A DNA stretch of 34,009 bases from Candidatus Thorarchaeota archaeon (GTDB lineage: Archaea; Asgardarchaeota; Thorarchaeia; Thorarchaeales; Thorarchaeaceae), in contig JAEOTX010000149.1 in NCBI GenBank assembly GCA_016839605.1, positions 1-34,009 of the forward strand. Reading direction: 5' to 3'. The position numbers were made by a program, and so were the translations under genes. Each line of letters opens with the position of its first letter. Within the stretch, counting starts at the first letter, position 1. Under the pieces are notes generated by a model, which ran no database searches, was not told the DNA's origin, and saw only the letters and a program-made list of their open reading frames with translations. Positions 2,842 to 15,972 of the stretch are shown here, piece after piece.

Positions 2842-3660
2842 ATGTCAATTCAGGAGGAAGTCGAATTGTCCTCAGCGAATGAACTTATCCTGAGCACGAG
2901 TGGGTTGACCAAGAATTTTGGTGGTCTAGTTGCTGTCAATGATGTAAGTCTTGATGTCGAAAGAGGTTCGATAAAAGCAATCATCGGTCCAAATGGGTCC
3001 GGAAAAACTACCTTTTTCAATCTCATTACAGGAGCCCTTCCACCTACAGCTGGACGAATATTCTTTGAAGGTCAAAATATAACTAGATCCTCAATGCATC
3101 AACGGACACGACTAGGCATATCACGCTCCTATCAGATCACGAATATCTTCCCGTATCAAACAACATTCGAGAATATTCGATTGGCAGCTCAGGGCTGTAG
3201 TGGTGCAAGAGTAAACTTCCTAGGGATGTTAAAGAGAGCAGGCTCATATGATGAGTTTCATGAGAAGGTCCTGGATATTGCTTCAATTGTGGGTCTTGAT
3301 CCTACGAGGCTCTATATCCCGGCCGCTTTGATACCGCATGCTGAACAAAGAAAGCTTGAAATCGCGATGGCGCTCGCTACAGAACCGAGACTCCTCTTAC
3401 TTGACGAACCTGCTGCGGGAATGGCAATAGAAGAGATACCAGAGGTTATTGATGCCATTTTGCGGGTAAAAGAATCCTATGGTGATCAACTAACTCTACT
3501 TGTGGTTGAGCATAAGATGGACATTGTTATGACCCTCAGTGAGGAAATCTTTGTTCTTTCAGAAGGAAAGATGATTGCGAAAGGGTCTCCAAAGGAGATC
3601 CAAGAAAATGAACAAGTGTTGACAGCTTATCTTGGTGGTACAGATGAACAACTTGCTTGA
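2842..3660 (+). CDS. livG: Liv-type (HAAT) ABC transporter ATP-binding protein, LivG-like
   Basis: KNFGGLVAV, Walker A GPNGSGKTT, Walker B LLLLDEPAAG, VEH motif, AYLG C-terminus. The signature motif is degenerate (IPHAEQ). Confidence 0.9.
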   Translation: MSIQEEVELSSANELILSTSGLTKNFGGLVAVNDVSLDVERGSIKAIIGPNGSGKTTFFNLITGALPPTAGRIFFEGQNITRSSMHQRTRLGISRSYQITNIFPYQTTFENIRLAAQGCSGARVNFLGMLKRAGSYDEFHEKVLDIASIVGLDPTRLYIPAALIPHAEQRKLEIAMALATEPRLLLLDEPAAGMAIEEIPEVIDAILRVKESYGDQLTLLVVEHKMDIVMTLSEEIFVLSEGKMIAKGSPKEIQENEQVLTAYLGGTDEQLA

Positions 3661-4363
3661 AATACAAGACGCTCACGTATACATTGGCTCCTTCTATATT
3701 TTACAAGGAATCTCAATGGTCGTACCCAAAGGAGAAGTGACTCTGTTATTGGGCAGGAACGGTGCTGGTAAAACTACAACGATGAAAACAATACTCGGTC
3801 TCTATCCACCTAGAGAAGGAAAGGTTGTTTTCAAGGGTGAGGAAATATCAAATCTGCCTACCCATAAAATTGTCAATAAAGGCATTGGATATGTCCCTGA
3901 TACCAGAAGGATATTTGGGACACTGACAGTTGAACAGAATCTAACTGTGTCTAGACGGAAGAGCAGTTCTCGGGATGACCTGCAAGAACGATTGGATCTC
4001 ATCTTTGACTTGTTTCCTGACATGAAAGGATTTCTCAAGCAGAGAGCAGGAACTCTGTCTGGCGGTCAACAGCAAATGCTAGCTGTAGCCCGTGCATTGG
4101 TGAATGACAATGATTTGTTGCTCATAGACGAACCTACAGAGGGATTGAGTCCTCTCTTGGCTAAGAATCTTATCAATGCTCTTGACAGACTAAAGGAATT
4201 CGCCACTATCTTACTAGTCGAACAGAACTTTCGGACTGTGTCGAAGCTGGGTGATAACTACTACATTTTCGATAGTGGAAAAATCGTGCATGAGGGCAAT
4301 AACATGAGTGAGCTAATAGCCGACAAGGCACTTGTTGCACAATACTTGGGGGTGAGCATTTAA
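3644..4363 (+). CDS. livF: Liv-type ABC transporter ATP-binding protein, LivF-like
   Basis: GRNGAGKTT, LSGGQQQ, LLLIDEPTEGLSP, LLVEQN. ATG 3644 is preferred over TTG 3632 because it follows an SD-like GGTGG. Confidence 0.9.
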   Translation: MNNLLEIQDAHVYIGSFYILQGISMVVPKGEVTLLLGRNGAGKTTTMKTILGLYPPREGKVVFKGEEISNLPTHKIVNKGIGYVPDTRRIFGTLTVEQNLTVSRRKSSSRDDLQERLDLIFDLFPDMKGFLKQRAGTLSGGQQQMLAVARALVNDNDLLLIDEPTEGLSPLLAKNLINALDRLKEFATILLVEQNFRTVSKLGDNYYIFDSGKIVHEGNNMSELIADKALVAQYLGVSI

Positions 4364-5475
4364 TGACTATGCAAACAAAGAGATTCTCTCCTCGGGATTA
4401 CTTGGAGGAAAACCCACAGGTTCGTAAGATATTGAGAATTGCAATGGTTATTGCACTCATAATAATTGGAGGTCTATTGGTCGTAATGGCTATAGACGTT
4501 TATACATGGGATGGATTTGTTGCAAGGACTAGCAAATCGGTGGTTAATGGTCTTGCGCTCAGCATGTTGCTTTTCTTGATGGTTTCTGGTTTCTTCTTGA
4601 TCTTTGGTCTATGTGATGTCATCAATTTCGCTCATGGCGCTTTCTTTATGTTGGGAGGGTTCATGGGTTTTGTTATCTATCTTGGAACCGAGGCTCTTTT
4701 CCTAGATTCAACCCTGCCGTTCCATCTTATCTTTGGAGCTAATCAATTTGCCATGTCTCTCACAGCTTTTATTGTAAGTGCCCTTGGAGCTACTGCAATT
4801 CTTGCCCTTATTGGTGGAGGAATAGAGTTCTTTACAGTTCGGCGGCTTTATGGCAATCCTATTGCTCAGATACTGCTGACAGTTGGTTTTATGTTCATTA
4901 TCACTCAGATTGCCGAGATCATCTGGGGGCCTCCCCAATTTAGCTACTTCATTACTCCCAATTCGCAAATAGCCTACTTCTTCATGAGTGGTATTCTTGA
5001 TTTTGGCGAAGGGATGATATTTGAGATATATCGCATTTTCTTGATTTTTCTCGGGTTAGCAGTTGCTGCAATAATGTTTGTTGGATTTAGAAAGACACGT
5101 ATCGGACTCCAGATACAAGCAGGTATAGAAGATTCAGAGATGGTTGAAGCGTTAGGGACTGATATCAGAAAATTGTTCACAATTGTATTCATGTTGGGTG
5201 CAGGTCTAGCGGGACTATCAGGTGCTGTCCTGGTCCCGTGGATTGGAGCAAACTCAGGACATGGTTTGACATACCTCATTTACGCTTTTGTCATAGTCGT
5301 TATTGGCGGCGCACATTACGGTCGCTTTGAAGGGACTTTCTTCGGTGCGCTTATAGTCGGTCTATCAATGCAATTCACAGCATATTTCATTCCATTTCTT
5401 GAGAACATCATTGTATTCATCATTATGGCGATTATTCTGATTATAAGACCAGGAGGACTGACGGGTCATGAATGA
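4363..5475 (+). CDS. livH: Liv-type ABC transporter permease, LivH-like
   Basis: Multi-TM protein with LIFGLCDVINFAHG, KTRIG, VIVVIGG and IRPGGL motifs. TAATG coupling to the upstream gene. Confidence 0.88.
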   Translation: MTMQTKRFSPRDYLEENPQVRKILRIAMVIALIIIGGLLVVMAIDVYTWDGFVARTSKSVVNGLALSMLLFLMVSGFFLIFGLCDVINFAHGAFFMLGGFMGFVIYLGTEALFLDSTLPFHLIFGANQFAMSLTAFIVSALGATAILALIGGGIEFFTVRRLYGNPIAQILLTVGFMFIITQIAEIIWGPPQFSYFITPNSQIAYFFMSGILDFGEGMIFEIYRIFLIFLGLAVAAIMFVGFRKTRIGLQIQAGIEDSEMVEALGTDIRKLFTIVFMLGAGLAGLSGAVLVPWIGANSGHGLTYLIYAFVIVVIGGAHYGRFEGTFFGALIVGLSMQFTAYFIPFLENIIVFIIMAIILIIRPGGLTGHE

Positions 5476-7210
5476 AGAAAGAAAAATCGTTGGGAATCTG
5501 AAAGGAACTATCCTTAGGATACCCTCTATACTTTCAAACAATAGAACAGTAATCGCTGTTCTAGCGTTTTTGTACTTACTCCCATTGGGTACAACTGCAG
5601 GGACGTCCCCCGTTCGAGCTCTGCTCTTCCTTATTACTCAGATAATGATTTTCAGTCTTCTTGCAATGTCTTTTGATCTACAATTAGGCCGTTCAGCGCT
5701 TCTGAATTTTGGACATGTTGCACTTTTCGGTGTGGGGGCTTATTTCATGGCATATACTTTGGATGCAGGTTTTCTCCCCGAGCCCTTTAATGCTATTGCA
5801 GCCATTCCATATCCGCTCACGTTAGTTCTAGCAATGATGATTGGAGGATTTCTTGGGCTTATAATGGGATTGACAACGAGCCGAATGAGAGGCACAGCAT
5901 TTGCATTTATTGCTTTAGCGATTTCGATGTTCCTCTATAATTTCTACGCTGAAAATCCGGGTCTTTCTGGTGGAGAAACAGGACTGGGGGTGCCAACTCC
6001 AGATCTCATCAGGACTGCACCTTTCTATCTGCTCTTTGTCGCCCTTGCATTTGTATTCCTTGCCGCTTTTGCTGGAATGGTCATCCTTTACTTGAAGAAG
6101 CGAACGGATTCAATTGCCCTCATCTTGTTCACTCCAATCATGATAGTCTTTACAGCTTTCCTATTCTTATTTGGAACAAACATCTATGGGCCTATACTGG
6201 TATTCTATGCCTTTCTTGGGATGATACTTCTCTTTTGGATGGAGCGGAAGAGACGAATAAGTGACCCTTTAGAATATGTTGAGAAGACGTTTGCAATGAA
6301 AGGTGAAGTGGAAACCACTAACAAGATGACAACCTATGTAATACCTTTCATTATCATAATAATAACCCTCATAGGTCTGGCAGTTACTTTCGGAACCAAC
6401 ATTGCTGAGATGGTATCCCTGTGGATTGAAGACACCACCACATTCTATTACACAATTCCGGTGCAATTCTATCTAGTATTGACTTGTCTTGTGATGACCT
6501 ACTTCTTCATTAGGCGATTAATTGCATCACCATTTGGGAGAATGGTAACTGCGGTTGCTCAGAATGAAGAACGGGCTGAAGCCTTAGGCTACAATAGCTA
6601 TCGTGCCAAAATAGTCGTTCTTGTTATAAGTGGGGCAATTGCCGCTCTTGCGGGGGCGTTGTATGCACCTTTCATTAGAACTATTGATCCGGGCACTGCA
6701 TTAGGAGTCGAGGTGACAATCAATGCGATGTTGTACACCATTATCGGAGGAATTGGCACACTACTAGGCCCAATACTCGGCACAGGAGTAGTGGTGTACT
6801 CTGAGCTAAATCTGGTAGACTTCATCACGGAGGGTCTAGGCCTACCTGGACGATTATGGTTGGTTGGGCTAGGAGTGATGTATATTTTCATTGTTCTATT
6901 CATGCCCCTTGGTATCGTAGGTTCTATTGGACGCAGGGCTGGGTCTATCAAAGAAAGTCTACGACAATTGAAATTCGGTCGTTTTGAGTTTGGACTGAAG
7001 GATGTTGACTATTGGGTATTTGGGTTCCTAGGAATAATGGGCCTATTCTTCTTCTTGGTGGAAGATCCTAGGTTTCTCCCTATTGCTATCGGTATCTTTG
7101 GATTTCTGGGGGTAGTAGGTTTCTTCCTTTTGTATATCTTTAGAGGGGAGATTTCATCGAGAATAAGAAGCTACGCCAAGAAATTGCGCTTTGCTAGAGG
7201 AGGCGATTGA
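5468..7210 (+). CDS. livM: Liv-type ABC transporter permease, LivM-like, with large internal insertion
   Basis: LLNFGHVALFGVGAY, SGGETG, SPFGR...QNEERAEALGY, IIGGIGTLLGPILG, MPLGIVG. At 580 aa it is longer than typical. Confidence 0.88.
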   Translation: MNEERKIVGNLKGTILRIPSILSNNRTVIAVLAFLYLLPLGTTAGTSPVRALLFLITQIMIFSLLAMSFDLQLGRSALLNFGHVALFGVGAYFMAYTLDAGFLPEPFNAIAAIPYPLTLVLAMMIGGFLGLIMGLTTSRMRGTAFAFIALAISMFLYNFYAENPGLSGGETGLGVPTPDLIRTAPFYLLFVALAFVFLAAFAGMVILYLKKRTDSIALILFTPIMIVFTAFLFLFGTNIYGPILVFYAFLGMILLFWMERKRRISDPLEYVEKTFAMKGEVETTNKMTTYVIPFIIIIITLIGLAVTFGTNIAEMVSLWIEDTTTFYYTIPVQFYLVLTCLVMTYFFIRRLIASPFGRMVTAVAQNEERAEALGYNSYRAKIVVLVISGAIAALAGALYAPFIRTIDPGTALGVEVTINAMLYTIIGGIGTLLGPILGTGVVVYSELNLVDFITEGLGLPGRLWLVGLGVMYIFIVLFMPLGIVGSIGRRAGSIKESLRQLKFGRFEFGLKDVDYWVFGFLGIMGLFFFLVEDPRFLPIAIGIFGFLGVVGFFLLYIFRGEISSRIRSYAKKLRFARGGD

Positions 7211-11641: not shown

Positions 11642-11693
11642 TGTTCTAAATCTAACACAATACTGTTCAAGTACTGTGATTGGAGGAAAGAAG

Positions 11694-13187
11694 ATGAAAA
11701 AAATACGAACGATATCGCTATCTCTTTTGTTGCTACTATCGGTATCCCTCTTCTTGCCCTGTTTCTTGGCTAGACCAGCTGCTGCACAGCCAGACCCAAT
11801 TAAGATTGGAGTTTTCACCCCCGAAACAGCAGGTCTGATAGCATATGGACCATGGACAAAACAAGGCTTCTCATTGGGATTGGAATATGCAACTACGATG
11901 ATGGGATATGATAATAAGAACAAGACCGAAGCAGGTCGGCCCTATGAAGTTCACTTTTATGATACTCAGGGTGATATAACCCATGCAGCATCCGAAGCAG
12001 TAGATGCTATCGAAACTGATGGAATCGACATTCTCGTCGGAGGAACTTCTAGTGCAGTTGCCGCAGCAATAGCACCTATTGCTGAAGATTATGAAAAGCT
12101 ATATTTCATAAGTCCAGCTGCTGCTTCTTCACTGACTGCTGCTGACTTTAATCCATACATTTTCCGTATCGCCAGAAACAACTGGCATGATGCCTATGCA
12201 GGCGTCACGTATGCTATGGATTACCTCAACTATACGAAATTCGCCTTTCTTGCTGCTGATTATTCCTTTGGATATGACGGCGTTGCTTCAATGACAACTG
12301 TAATCGAGGACAAGGGAGGAGTAGTGCTCAGTTCCGTGTATGCAAATCTCTTTGATACTGATTTCTCTCAAGAGATTGATGCTCTCAAAGCTGCTGATTT
12401 AGTAAACGATATTGAGTATCTGTTCATCATTTGGGCTCTTGACTTCTCATATCTATACAATGACATGACAACATACAATCTCGCAGCTGACATGGAAATT
12501 GCTGGAGCATGTATTGATATCCTTTCAATGAACACCATTGAAGCGAGTTTGACTCCTCCAGCTACCTACATCGGTTCCACTGGGCTCTGTCTGTACGGCT
12601 ATGAACTACCCAACAACACGGTTAATGATTGGATGGTGGACCAGCATGTCACACAAAACATCATGCCGAATCATCTCTTTGCACTGACCTATCGAGTACC
12701 AGAGCTTTTCACTGCAAGTGCCTTTGCAACGGCGCAATTCTTGGTTGATGTAACAAATGCGGTCCCAGATCTAGATACGCATTCGATGATCAACTATCTT
12801 GAAGGCGGCATTACCATTGACTGCCCGAAGGGACCAACATACTTGAGACCGGGTGACCATCAAGGGCTTGCAGAGATGTATATCGCAGAAGCTGTGAATG
12901 ATACCCGCTCCGGGTCTGAAACAGAGAATCTCGTCATTGCCGAATTGGTTGAAACCTTAGACCGTGACACTGTTGCACCTCCAGTTGAGGCTGTCTGGGA
13001 TGGCGTTCCATATGTTCCAGGTGGATTCGCACCAGAAACAACCACTACTACTACTACTACCACTCCTACGACGACAACCGAACCTCCACCACCACCACCA
13101 CCGATTGATCCGATACTGCTTCTGGCACTCGGTGGCGGAGCTCTAGTAGTGATAGTCCTCATTGTCGTGGTAATGAAAAGGCAATAG
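11694..13187 (+). CDS. Liv-type ABC substrate-binding protein (periplasmic binding protein type 1) with signal peptide, Thr/Pro linker and C-terminal TM anchor
   Basis: Signal peptide MKKIR-hydrophobic-AAA, then PIKIG, DILVGGTSS, YIFR, ADYSFG, PKG...RPGDHQ. Ends in a T/P-rich linker, a TM helix and MKRQ. ATG 11694 follows GGAGG; the track start is GTG 11676. Confidence 0.88.
   Translation: MKKIRTISLSLLLLLSVSLFLPCFLARPAAAQPDPIKIGVFTPETAGLIAYGPWTKQGFSLGLEYATTMMGYDNKNKTEAGRPYEVHFYDTQGDITHAASEAVDAIETDGIDILVGGTSSAVAAAIAPIAEDYEKLYFISPAAASSLTAADFNPYIFRIARNNWHDAYAGVTYAMDYLNYTKFAFLAADYSFGYDGVASMTTVIEDKGGVVLSSVYANLFDTDFSQEIDALKAADLVNDIEYLFIIWALDFSYLYNDMTTYNLAADMEIAGACIDILSMNTIEASLTPPATYIGSTGLCLYGYELPNNTVNDWMVDQHVTQNIMPNHLFALTYRVPELFTASAFATAQFLVDVTNAVPDLDTHSMINYLEGGITIDCPKGPTYLRPGDHQGLAEMYIAEAVNDTRSGSETENLVIAELVETLDRDTVAPPVEAVWDGVPYVPGGFAPETTTTTTTTTPTTTTEPPPPPPPIDPILLLALGGGALVVIVLIVVVMKRQ
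13038..13103 (+). repeat. ACN/CCN trinucleotide low-complexity tract encoding the poly-Thr/poly-Pro linker
   Basis: ACA ACC ACT ACT ACT... then CCT CCA CCA CCA CCA CCA CCG, encoding TTTTTTTTTPTTTTEPPPPPPP. Confidence 0.85.
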
Positions 13188-13200
13188 CATCAATACAAAT

Positions 13201-13240
13201 GTAGTCTGGAAATCCCCCAGACTACTCCCCTTCTTTTTTC
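13201..13240 (+). terminator. Hairpin plus pyrimidine/T-tract terminator after the lipid/ABC operon
   Basis: Perfect 9-bp stem GTAGTCTGG / CCAGACTAC with a 7-nt loop, followed by TCCCCTTCTTTTTTC, 13 nt after the stop, between convergent genes. Confidence 0.7.
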
Positions 13241-13330: not shown

Positions 13331-13726
13331 TTATGTCGAGAGTAGATCGCCGACTTCTTTGGCGTATTTCCTCATCTGAGTTGTAGCCAAGCCCATGGAT
13401 GTCAAGTCTTTGGCGGCACCCATAAGTAGAAACTCGCCAGCCTGTGAAAGGACAGCAAAACCCTTCGCTCCTCTGACCGTCACCTCAAAGAGTTCTCCCA
13501 AATCAAGCCTCTCTGGAGATGCAGCCATCTCTCCAGTCATCAACAATGCTGCACTTACAGCAGCCATGAGGTCTGGATCTGCTTCAGAGTCCTCTGTGGC
13601 GAAGTACGCCAGCTTTACACCCTGTTTGCTGACAACCGCAATGGCGTCAAGGTCAGCATAGTTGGTCAATCCCATTAGGAGCTCTACGAGTTCCTTCTCC
13701 TTTTCTGGGTCGAGATGTTGCGACAT
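13331..13726 (-). CDS. Roadblock/LC7 (MglB/LAMTOR2-like) domain protein
   Basis: 131 aa with the roadblock pattern AIAVVSKQG...DPDLMAAVSAALL...GE...L.LGEL.EVTVRGAKG...AG...SMGL. Confidence 0.85.
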   Translation of the reverse strand: MSQHLDPEKEKELVELLMGLTNYADLDAIAVVSKQGVKLAYFATEDSEADPDLMAAVSAALLMTGEMAASPERLDLGELFEVTVRGAKGFAVLSQAGEFLLMGAAKDLTSMGLATTQMRKYAKEVGDLLST

Positions 13727-13754
13727 GATATCTTGCTCCCTATTGATTCAGTGG

Positions 13755-14693
13755 TTATTTTGCTACTAGCTTCTTCTTCTTTTTAGTGGTCTTAGCCTTT
13801 CCCTTCGCGGCTGGTACAGCAGGCGCTTCTGTTTCGGACCTGAAGAAACTGATAAGGTCTCCCAAGCGCTCTTTCATCTCTTGCTTGATTGGGCTCAGAA
13901 TGGCTTCAGGCGTGCCCTTTAGTAATTCAATGCCTAGGACCTTCCCATCCTTCACAATAACGCGAGGAATGAATCCCTCTGCCATAAATGTGCCCTCTGG
14001 CGGATCCCTGACTTTTTCGAACTTCCTCTCGACTTTCTCTTGTCCAAAGACGGCTATCTTATGCTCTGCAACTGTGAACAATTCATTATACACGATTAGC
14101 AGTTCTCTCTGGTAGCCTTCAGGTGGATCAGTTGTCTGCAACTCCTCAATCATAGCGCTTATCTCACTTGAGACTGGCACTGCAGGGGGAGCAGTAGCTG
14201 GAGCTGCCTTTGGGATTGCTGCAGGTTTGGGTGGGGCTTTGGCTGTAGCAGGTGGCTTCGGAGGCGGTGCCGCTGCTTTTGGAGCTGGTTTCGGCTTCGG
14301 AGGTGGTGCAGTTTCTACCTTTGCAGTTGGTGTTTCTGCGGCAGGTGCTTTTGGTTTTGGCTTTGGGGGGGCTGTAGTCGGAGCCTTCTCTCCTGGCTTA
14401 AGGACACGTGTTGCAGCTGTTGTGCCATCTAAGGCGGTGAAAAACGTTGGCGGCTCTTCGCCTTCGTCTACCGCGCGTACCTTGAAATGGAATCCGTACT
14501 CAGTTCGAAGATTGGTAGCAACTCTGGCACCAATGAATTTCCTTCTGATTCCTGCTTGAGTACCCTTCCAAAGATAGATTGACTTGGTCTCGTCGTCAAC
14601 AACGCAGACAACCATTTGAGAATCTAAGTCCGCTTTGGAAATCTCAACTTCGTTGAGGGTTCCATCCTCCATTACCTCATAACCTACGACCAT
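13755..14693 (-). CDS. Gelsolin-like domain protein with Pro/Ala/Lys-rich linker, uncharacterised C-terminal domain and polybasic tail
   Basis: The N-terminal ~90 aa match the gelsolin repeat pattern (LDS..V..V D...IYLWKG......K..A...A......VDEGEEP..F). A ~85 aa P/A/K linker follows, then a globular domain and a KKKKK tail. Confidence 0.75.
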   Translation of the reverse strand: MVVGYEVMEDGTLNEVEISKADLDSQMVVCVVDDETKSIYLWKGTQAGIRRKFIGARVATNLRTEYGFHFKVRAVDEGEEPPTFFTALDGTTAATRVLKPGEKAPTTAPPKPKPKAPAAETPTAKVETAPPPKPKPAPKAAAPPPKPPATAKAPPKPAAIPKAAPATAPPAVPVSSEISAMIEELQTTDPPEGYQRELLIVYNELFTVAEHKIAVFGQEKVERKFEKVRDPPEGTFMAEGFIPRVIVKDGKVLGIELLKGTPEAILSPIKQEMKERLGDLISFFRSETEAPAVPAAKGKAKTTKKKKKLVAK

Positions 14694-14913
14694 GATTGTT
14701 CACTAACTTGCAGTTTTTGTCTTCTTGCTCCTGTGCCCCCAATCCGGGCAACTGAAGACTAGTCGAGATATGGTCATCTCTGTGGACAACTGGATATCTC
14801 TGTTTGGGATATAAGATTGTTATTGTGGTGGATGTAGCACGTACAAACACTGAAAGTGAAGCAGGTCAACAAGCCTTATGTAGCAGGGGAGCTAACGGCT
14901 TTCGTTGGTGCCG

Positions 14914-15972
14914 ATGACTGAACAGTCAGCTGAAGCATTCTATGCTGAGCAATTTGGTAAAGGCAAGACTCTCACTGTGTTCCAGCTAATTCTAGGCTTT
15001 GTTATCTCTACACTCATTATGGTTGGATCCACTTGGGGTCTCATATACGTCTATGACGTTCTGACAGATTTCACAATATCACCATCGAATCTAGGCATTT
15101 ACACGCTTGCAATGACGATAGGATCTCTTGTTGCTACGATAATTGGTGTAATTGTATGTTATGTCATTCTGAAGGTCCCGCGTTCCGCTTTGGTGCTATT
15201 GAGGGTTCATGAGTTTTTCAAGAGAGGCACTGGTGAGTATTTTGTCTGGCCAGAACCCAAGAATCAAAGCTTGAGACTTGTCTTTCGGAGGGCGCTATAC
15301 GGCTCTATTCTAGTTGTTGGCATTGGCATGACCCTGGTCAGTTTTGAATTGATGGGCGTTGCACAAACTGCGGATCTTGCTGTTTTTGGCACTTGGGTTG
15401 TGATTATCTCTGCAGCTGTTCTTCCTCTCACGATTCTGATATTGTACTATGGTCCGTGGCTCATTAAGGATGCAGGCCTCTTCCACATGGACCTCAGGGA
15501 TCGCTCACTCAGCAATGTAGGCGACGACTTAGAAGACATGCTCGAGTTCTTTGCAGGGGTTGATCTGGTTCTTGTTTGGCTTGAGTTGACATTGACGGCA
15601 GGCTTCGAGCAACCCTGGTTTTCAGTATTTGTGATCATGGTAGCTTTGGGTCCTCTGCTCGCCATAATCTTCAATTTCACCCTCGTGTTCATGTTTATCA
15701 AAAACCGAGCCACGTTGCAGATTATTGACCGCTTGGTGGCCCGATATGATACGCAAGATATGTTCAACGCATCAGACAGCATCAGAACCAAAGTCCTCGC
15801 CCTCATTGATAGAGATATTCTTGCTTCACTAGAAACATCTGATGATGATGCTAGTACTTCCGTTGAAGAAGAATATGACTCCATTCCGATTGAATCTGAT
15901 GAGACCGAGGAACCTGCTGTGACTCAAGAAGAAGATACTGTTGTCACTGAAGAAGAAGACAGCTGGACTTAG
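14914..15972 (+). CDS. Hypothetical integral membrane protein (~6 TM) with acidic C-terminal tail
   Basis: Long ORF with about six hydrophobic segments and a D/E-rich tail. No family recognised. Start may be 14905, 14908 or 14914. Confidence 0.75.
   Translation: MTEQSAEAFYAEQFGKGKTLTVFQLILGFVISTLIMVGSTWGLIYVYDVLTDFTISPSNLGIYTLAMTIGSLVATIIGVIVCYVILKVPRSALVLLRVHEFFKRGTGEYFVWPEPKNQSLRLVFRRALYGSILVVGIGMTLVSFELMGVAQTADLAVFGTWVVIISAAVLPLTILILYYGPWLIKDAGLFHMDLRDRSLSNVGDDLEDMLEFFAGVDLVLVWLELTLTAGFEQPWFSVFVIMVALGPLLAIIFNFTLVFMFIKNRATLQIIDRLVARYDTQDMFNASDSIRTKVLALIDRDILASLETSDDDASTSVEEEYDSIPIESDETEEPAVTQEEDTVVTEEEDSWT

Follow-up and report, generated by a model that had tools for sequence, protein, structure and literature searches.

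A 34,009-nucleotide contig of a Candidatus Thorarchaeota archaeon (JAEOTX010000149.1, assembly GCA_016839605.1; the whole stretch is referred to below as the window) carries on its minus strand a gene for a single-domain gelsolin of the 1DGelX type, followed after a short gap by a gene for a Roadblock/LC7 protein, and this gene order recurs widely in the Asgard archaea. The reading of the pair as an operon of two genes, of ancient date in the Asgard archaea, is well supported by its conservation, as far as gene order can tell. The fuller proposal, in which the roadblock protein of such an operon would couple a small GTPase to the actin-acting gelsolin protein, stands in our estimation in even balance.

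The gelsolin gene (13755..14693, minus strand; product P0001, 312 aa) is the first of the pair and the roadblock gene (13331..13726, minus strand; product P0002, 131 aa) is the second, and a first-pass annotation of this DNA had correctly placed the one directly upstream of the other. That annotation also gave a 28-bp gap on the same strand, and the intergenic gap is exactly 28 nucleotides (nt) long (13727..13754, minus strand; CCACTGAATCAATAGGGAGCAAGATATC). It contains a Shine-Dalgarno-like GGGAG at 13736-13740, 9 nt 5' of the roadblock ATG, and a consensus scan finds no terminator-like site within it, in line with the earlier remark that no obvious terminator separates the genes. The pair thus has the layout of a two-gene operon, with genes on the same strand, a short gap, a ribosome-binding-like motif and no terminator in the gap. 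The first terminator-like element that the scan reports on the minus strand is a hairpin with a T-rich tail 3' of the roadblock gene (13201..13225, minus strand), a possible transcript end, in which an 11-pair stem is followed by ATTTGTATTG; it lies about 106 nt past the roadblock stop codon, and because the scan is designed for bacterial terminators it is weak evidence in an archaeon. The source is a metagenome-assembled genome (MAG) of Thorarchaeota type (3.08 Mb in 259 contigs, 80% complete), and the closest relatives of both proteins are labelled Thorarchaeota.

Conservation of the gelsolin–roadblock gene pair

A roadblock ortholog is located directly downstream on the same strand in all 30 informative Thor loci, informative meaning that the locus covers the gelsolin gene's 3' end. 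In 29 of them the gap measures 11-98 nt (median 29), with a GAGG/GGAG-type motif 6-10 nt 5' of the roadblock ATG in most. The Thor chromosome CP070658.1 (L034), which is labelled complete, is uninformative for the pair, with a run of Ns inside its GelX gene. The run (L034:5289-5390) falls in the low-complexity linker, and what comes after it belongs to a different region, pointing to either a mis-join or masking.

We surveyed 400 Asgard genomes from 33 families (f1 being Thor) by searching for domain X, the part of the gelsolin protein that follows its linker (see below). The gene carrying it, referred to as GelX, is present in 361 of the 400 genomes and 29 of the 33 families, and the pair is kept in representatives of 14 of the 29 GelX-bearing families. 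In addition to f1, the roadblock gene is directly downstream and on the same strand in f2, f6, f7, f9, f10, f13, f14, f20, f21, f22, f28, f29 and f31, adjacency outside Thor being scored on one locus per family. NCBI names of identical proteins include Odinarchaeum yellowstonii LCB_4, Baldrarchaeia, Hermodarchaeota, Lokiarchaeia (Harpocratesius, CR_4) and Kariarchaeaceae, and by these approximate labels the pair-bearing lineages are Thor, Hermod, Odin, Baldr, Loki and Heimdall/Kari. With a roadblock profile, orthologs (E up to 1e-25) are recovered from 361 of these 400 genomes; GelX and roadblock are both absent from f24-f27, and the same 14 Thor-family genomes have neither. When the place lists of both genes were compared by eye, about 70 Thor-family genomes and 29 others had the roadblock gene on the same contig and strand, starting a few tens of bases after GelX. 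Orientation is constant and the gaps are very short (mostly 2-100 nt) over at least six classes, with the other flanks scrambled. The first-pass annotation had put forward conservation of the adjacency as a test of its operon, and the adjacency is indeed kept far beyond Thor, by two genes that share a phyletic profile.

At 35 GelX loci outside Thor the neighbours include a roadblock gene in 18, GTPase genes in nine and YjeF in eight, and the flanks are otherwise not conserved. Chance adjacency is unlikely, because there are only eight Robl_LC7 matches in this genome of about 3.1 Mb, P0002 among them, and because the orthologous pair recurs phylum-wide; at random, a roadblock gene would come next downstream in well under 1% of cases. 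Some Hermod and Loki genomes have two GelX and two roadblock genes, and there the second copies are not adjacent. In the Hel families f18 and f19 one small gene (62-65 aa) intervenes between GelX and roadblock (L079:2131-4870 in f19, L080:3452-5896 in f18); its product is conserved and helical, and the Hel roadblock protein carries a disordered Pro/Thr/Ser-rich tail of about 180 aa with a conserved end ...ISDKEAVLEALKVLGWEE. The Frey and Jord roadblock orthologs are extended to 193-235 aa.

A third small gene (134 aa) immediately follows the roadblock gene on the same strand in 12 of the 30 Thor loci (for example L006:6444-6848, and also L008, L010, L012-L014, L016, L017, L019, L020, L024 and L025) and is absent from the window. 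Its product has a sub-threshold match to MAPKK1_Int (MP1/LAMTOR3, a roadblock-fold family; E 9e-4, 19.5 bits against a cut-off of 25). Its best homolog in the genome studied here (C213:10217-10672, 34% identity) adjoins a Ras-family GTPase gene.

The two proteins and domain X

P0002 had been called a roadblock protein from its sequence, and it passes the Robl_LC7 (PF03259) cut-off comfortably (E 4.6e-8, 33.1 bits against a cut-off of 23, residues 15-102). Searched against the PDB, it matches the 120-residue Robl_LC7 protein 7f8m_A over query residues 26-125 (E 9e-9) and 9jue_D over residues 16-129 (E 3e-6). By these alignments it is predicted to be of the full-length roadblock type with a C-terminal helix, not of the truncated LC7 type. 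Orthologs show 75-98% identity within Thor and 31-45% in the other classes, and P51-D52 is invariant. MglB and the solved Asgard roadblock proteins are homodimers with GTPase-activating (GAP) or guanine nucleotide exchange (GEF) activity or scaffold activity (PMC10933270).

P0001 is, on the strength of sequence similarity, an ortholog of the Thor protein 1DGelX. It is 77% identical to P0020, the sole such protein of Thorarchaeota SMTZ1-83 in the database, and the 1DGelX-type gene is present in a single copy per Thor genome; P0020 is presumably the exact 1DGelX protein assayed in the SMTZ1-83 work. That protein (Akil et al. 2020, PNAS; PMC7444086), from assembly SMTZ1-83, binds rabbit actin with a dissociation constant of 7.7 uM, nucleates actin at low ratios and severs it without calcium in vitro, and its authors suggested an extra function for the part that follows the gelsolin domain. 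Actin binding and severing by P0001 are probable by transfer from the SMTZ1-83 protein at 77% identity.

The gelsolin/cofilin-fold domain occupies residues 1-90 (14424..14693, minus strand). In a phmmer search of the PDB P0001 matches the Thor ProGel (7c2f_B, E 1.2e-12) as well as Thor, Heimdall and Loki 2DGels. An AlphaFold2 (AF2) model, built on an alignment of 28 orthologs, has a predicted local distance difference test (pLDDT) score above 90 over residues 1-90. The top Foldseek match of this segment is again 7c2f_B, with a template modelling (TM) score of 0.93 by target and a root-mean-square deviation of 1.1 A, and adseverin, gelsolin and villin domains come next. Pfam does not recognise the domain: PF00626 (Gelsolin repeat) has no match at E up to 1, and the only Pfam match of P0001 is a sub-threshold one to DUF7904 (14.9 bits against a cut-off of 30). 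Given the significant similarity to solved Asgard gelsolins, we attribute the miss to a Pfam model that is too distant, and the gelsolin assignment of the first-pass annotation holds by phmmer and by AF2 and Foldseek, not by Pfam. The domain is followed by a Pro/Ala/Lys-rich linker that is predicted to be disordered (residues 91-171, 14181..14423, minus strand; pLDDT 33-57). Linker length and composition differ among Asgard orthologs, and the linker is Pro-rich chiefly in Thor (alignment A1). Beyond domain X the protein closes with a low-confidence tail (13758..13829, minus strand; pLDDT 44-51) whose translation ends in the polybasic run KTTKKKKKLVAK; a K-rich C-terminal end is common to the Thor orthologs and some others.

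Domain X spans residues 172-288 (13830..14180, minus strand), as delimited by AF2 and alignment A1. The model arranges it as a helix, three strands, a loop, two strands and a long C-terminal helix, with pLDDT of about 90 in the full-length model and 84.5 when modelled alone. Six residues (R196, E197, G217, G234, R244 and E256) are invariant among 28 orthologs drawn from across the phylum (alignment A1). P0001 is like the 1DGelX of Akil et al. (2020) in having a single gelsolin domain, a linker and domain X, and the two descriptions differ in that domain X is a coiled-coil model in the 1DGelX paper and a five-stranded sheet with two flanking helices by AF2 here. That paper considers the protein alone, with no mention of 'roadblock', 'operon' or 'neighbor' (PMC7444086). 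Domain X accounts for 243 clusters among 1.84 billion representatives and is confined to Asgard archaea, and nearly all of the proteins matched by its profile also bear a gelsolin domain, which is the architecture of 1DGelX.

Searches for a solved relative of domain X found none. Foldseek against the PDB returns nothing below E 0.2, and the domain X profile has no match among PDB sequences. A wide VIA-align search gives a best Z of 3.5, to Cache/PAS-type sensor domains, and the roadblock portion of a Rag-like GTPase from Loki scores a Z of 2.8. In the ESM Atlas it matches Asgard gelsolin-type clusters only, and then Cache/PAS sensors at a TM score of about 0.5. These matches may be a faint hint of a PAS/profilin-like sandwich. 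It was also considered as a remote homolog of the roadblock family, and this was rejected at a profile-profile probability of just 1%. A prediction of the complex of domain X (alignment A3) with the roadblock protein (alignment A2) scored 0.00, which counts neither way for binding. Ten unusually long or oddly arranged domain X proteins out of 150 listed were scanned for Rosetta-stone fusions, and these carry a gelsolin match, a coiled coil, an HeH/SAP domain or no Pfam match at all, and in no case a roadblock or GTPase domain. Among GelX relatives, P0413 has an extra C-terminal HeH/LEM-SAP-type domain (E ~1e-10) and P0371 an extra C-terminal long coiled coil.

GTPase genes near GelX and the flanks of the locus

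In family f11, which like f12 is Hod-like and of the Heimdall class, GelX is followed after 22 nt by a gene for a Rab-like GTPase (179 aa) and, about 40 nt further on, by one for an MglA-like GTPase (250 aa), and this order is found in all 20 informative f11 loci (L104:3383-5677 in G067, and L115-L134). In L104 GelX is at 3383-4324, the Rab-like gene at 4347-4886 and the MglA-like gene at 4925-5677. The Rab-like protein matches PF00071 (E 2e-49) and has Rab23, Rab30 and Rab22 as its best solved relatives; those of the 250-residue protein are MglA of Myxococcus and of Thermus (E 1.2e-19 and 2.5e-16, respectively). NCBI labels the f11 proteins Heimdallarchaeota or Hodarchaeota, and the f11 GTPase 'Rab family GTPase'. 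Because all f11 genomes belong to one genus, the arrangement represents one or few evolutionary events, not twenty. Both f12 genomes (L103, L136-L137) also have a Rab-like gene after GelX, and the MglA-like gene is present in the sole locus that reaches far enough. In f32 a Rab-like gene follows GelX with an MglA-like gene just beyond on the opposite strand, and short GelX paralogs in f8, f10 and f13 adjoin genes of Rab-like GTPases in various orientations. Ras-family genes make up about 1% of genes (24 matches in the genome studied here, 53 in G067 and 14 in Odin).

Odin and f28 genomes have a gene for a long Ras GTPase (561 aa), YjeF, GelX and roadblock all on one strand, which in Odinarchaeum yellowstonii LCB_4 (L068:190-4797) and in L070 form a tightly packed four-gene row. 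The 561-residue protein combines a Ras-family domain at its N-terminus with some 390 aa of unknown sequence. In Loki and Hel loci, too, YjeF, an NAD(P)HX repair enzyme, is encoded next to GelX on its upstream side, there by itself.

In a maximum-likelihood tree of 31 GelX proteins the GTPase-linked forms (those of f11 and f12, and the short paralogs) form one clade (support 97/90), and the other clade holds all remaining proteins, including long forms of the Heimdall class that keep the roadblock neighbour; the tree is rooted at the midpoint only, and the short paralogs are on long branches. Tree and neighbours together therefore point to two sister GelX lineages, each tied to a component of an MglA/MglB-type or Rab-type GTPase system.

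The genome studied here has about 24-30 Ras-like and MglA-like candidate GTPases, all on other contigs, the MglA-like ones including C192:37498-38397, C205:10579-11226 and C14:8506-8892. When the Rab-like and MglA-like GTPases linked to GelX are compared with these, no single Thor protein stands out as a one-to-one ortholog, the best being 35-42% identical with several tied. At C192:97339-98338 a Ras-family GTPase gene is divergent from an open reading frame (ORF) containing a roadblock domain. The first-pass annotation had remarked that the window contains no GTPase or actin gene; this genome's only actin gene is located on contig C255, and no Ras-, Arf- or MglA-like ORF was found on the 34-kb contig.

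Two further genes flank the pair. The convergent neighbour (11676-13187, plus strand) encodes a Peripla_BP_6 periplasmic-binding protein with a C-terminal poly-Thr/poly-Pro stalk and a hydrophobic anchor, as in archaeal surface-tethered solute receptors. The divergent neighbour (14905-15972, plus strand) encodes a predicted multi-pass membrane protein of 355 aa with an acidic tail and no Pfam match; it lies beside GelX in 22 of 31 Thor loci (the window counted), and not so outside Thor.

Proposed function, alternatives and comparison with known systems

We propose that the 1DGelX protein would bind actin through its gelsolin domain and sever, cap or nucleate filaments, and that the roadblock protein, a predicted single-domain MglB-type protein and most likely a dimer, would be made in step with GelX and act in the same pathway, as a regulator or adaptor between GelX and a small GTPase of MglA-like or Rab-like type. 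This GTPase would be encoded elsewhere in the Thor genome and act in trans, with its nucleotide state setting the time and place of GelX action on actin; the site would probably be the membrane, which the polybasic tail of GelX may bind. In known systems, roadblock dimers of the MglB type act as regulators of MglA, and small GTPases usually have roadblock/longin dimers as their platforms (PMC10933270). Co-transcription of the two genes, contact between the two proteins and the GTPase step are all presumed from gene order and domain content. The first-pass annotation had suggested a link from small-GTPase regulation to actin remodelling, and the idea gains comparative support because the sister GelX clade precedes Rab-like and MglA-like genes and a Ras gene is located upstream in Odin; the part assigned to the GTPase is still conjectural. 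A bolder form of the proposal, tentative and in our view rather doubtful, regards GelX and roadblock as the surviving core of an ancestral Asgard module in which a small GTPase of MglA-like or Rab-like type, via the roadblock dimer, would switch on an actin-severing or -capping protein at the membrane, domain X being a new GTPase- or roadblock-binding effector domain.

A number of observations weigh against a GTPase-coupled operon. The 34-kb contig has no GTPase gene, and thus none next to P0002 in the manner of mglA and mglB; no locus among those surveyed has GelX, roadblock and GTPase genes all contiguous; lineages with GTPase genes after GelX have their roadblock ortholog at another place (C1:1456103-1456480 in G067), away from any GTPase gene. 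Elsewhere in the same genome GTPase and roadblock genes are canonical neighbours, an MglA-like ORF being followed by a roadblock gene at C14:8195-8892, so P0002 itself need not serve a GTPase. Among the 150 representatives listed, none has domain X fused to a roadblock or GTPase domain. The strongest rival, which we think unlikely, dispenses with the GTPase altogether and has the roadblock protein as a direct structural partner of GelX, its dimer holding domain X or the long C-terminal helix of that domain and so joining two single-domain gelsolins and providing a second actin contact for severing or bundling. It would account for a tight and widely conserved pair with a common phyletic profile, most lineages of which have no GTPase gene beside it. 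There are established cases of a roadblock-fold dimer holding a helix of its partner (dynein DLRB1 and LAMTOR4/5; PMC10933270), with LC7/Robl on the dynein intermediate chain and LAMTOR dimers on LAMTOR1 as models, and the extra function proposed for the post-gelsolin region by the 1DGelX authors (PMC7444086) would fit as well. However, the long C-terminal helix is missing in some orthologs that do have a roadblock neighbour (such as Loki f21), 1DGelX severs actin in vitro without any roadblock protein (PMC7444086), and the GTPase adjacency of the sister GelX clade is left unexplained.

Other points bear against the functional reading of the adjacency, and a further rival is a gene order inherited since an early Asgard ancestor with no shared function, which we consider improbable. 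Local synteny is strong within Thor, where the upstream ABC-transporter genes are syntenic too, and because this whole upstream region is kept, conservation inside Thor alone says little. The names given to the lineages come from NCBI labels that are not consistent among MAGs. About 12 of the families sampled have the two genes apart, namely f3, f4 (Atabey), f5, f8 (Heimdallarchaeum), f11, f12, f15 (Frey), f16 (Jord), f17, f23, f30 and f32, which retain both genes; the roadblock ortholog survives elsewhere in nearly all of them (f5 has just a weaker match, E 4e-17), and the neighbours of such orphan orthologs in 14 genomes include nothing conserved and no GTPase. The metabolite-repair enzyme gene YjeF, with no evident link to actin, is likewise a conserved neighbour of GelX at eight loci in several classes, so some of the gene order may have been inherited with no functional meaning. 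Against neutral inheritance stand the constant orientation and very short gaps across at least six classes despite scrambled flanks, the conserved Shine-Dalgarno-like motif before the second gene, the near-identical presence and absence of both genes over 400 genomes, and the independent association of GelX genes with genes of GTPase systems. We consider it very improbable indeed that the roadblock-fold protein acts like a profilin, binding actin monomers or the Pro-rich linker of GelX and feeding nucleation. The two families do have a common core fold (PMC10933270) and the Thor GelX linker is of PPPKPKP type, but P0002 matches Robl_LC7 and aligns over nearly its whole length with canonical roadblock proteins, including the central-helix region that is replaced by strands in profilin (PMC10933270), and the linker is not Pro-rich in Loki and Odin orthologs that keep the roadblock neighbour.

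The proposed GTPase-coupled operon has partial counterparts in well-studied systems. It resembles the MglA/MglB polarity switch of Myxococcus and Thermus in that P0002 is a single-domain roadblock protein of MglB size, and in that MglA is the best solved relative (E 1.2e-19) of the protein encoded two genes past GelX in Hod-like genomes. In gliding, GTP-bound MglA engages MreB, a homolog of actin, which sets a precedent in bacteria for a path leading from a GTPase and roadblock protein to a filament of the actin family. Unlike mglA and mglB, which are usually adjacent to each other, the roadblock gene here adjoins that of an actin-binding protein, on a contig with no GTPase gene. Ragulator (LAMTOR2/3 and 4/5) with the Rag GTPases, and dynein LC7/Robl, likewise use roadblock-fold dimers as scaffolds (PMC10933270), and the weak LAMTOR3/MP1-like third gene in 12 of 30 Thor loci is a further likeness, but the pair comes without LAMTOR1, Rag or dynein components. 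The gelsolin-like domain of Sec23 touches the Sar1 GTPase in COPII and adds to GAP activity (PMC11914678), a precedent for direct contact between a gelsolin fold and a GTPase; Sec23 differs in being a five-domain coat protein with no action on actin, and contact between GelX and a GTPase is putative. An operon of a LAMTOR1-like roadblock gene, a Rab-like GTPase gene and a DENN gene has been described in Asgard archaea in a preprint (Liu et al. 2020), which is alike as a conserved Asgard neighbourhood joining a roadblock-superfamily gene with small-GTPase signalling; the genes are other ones, and the passages of the preprint found do not list a gelsolin–roadblock neighbourhood. The authors of the Asgard roadblock and GTPase structures note that genome layout is of little help in matching GTPases to their regulators (PMC10933270). 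Our partial coverage of the literature revealed no paper describing a gelsolin–roadblock operon or the GelX-Rab-MglA row, and a prior description is possible. Roadblock/GTPase modules are textbook knowledge, and the 1DGelX protein is already published and characterised; what is new is a widely conserved roadblock-based signalling variant attached to a known actin regulator.

Asgard archaea encode eukaryote-like actin, profilins and gelsolins along with dozens of small GTPases and their roadblock and longin partners, and hardly anything has so far linked the one set to the other. By its conservation across the phylum, the pair described here connects a roadblock protein with an actin regulator whose biochemistry has been characterised, and through it the orphan domain X gains a candidate role. 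As the Asgard archaea are the closest archaeal relatives of eukaryotes, the pair is a testable lead on how actin is controlled in them and is of interest for the origin of regulated actin dynamics. Together with the GTPase-linked GelX clade it names specific proteins for testing directly whether actin came under GTPase control before eukaryotes arose, and if GelX and roadblock are the core of an ancestral module, they would represent a forerunner, among prokaryotes, of the way small GTPases control actin, by which the shape and motility of eukaryotic cells are defined.

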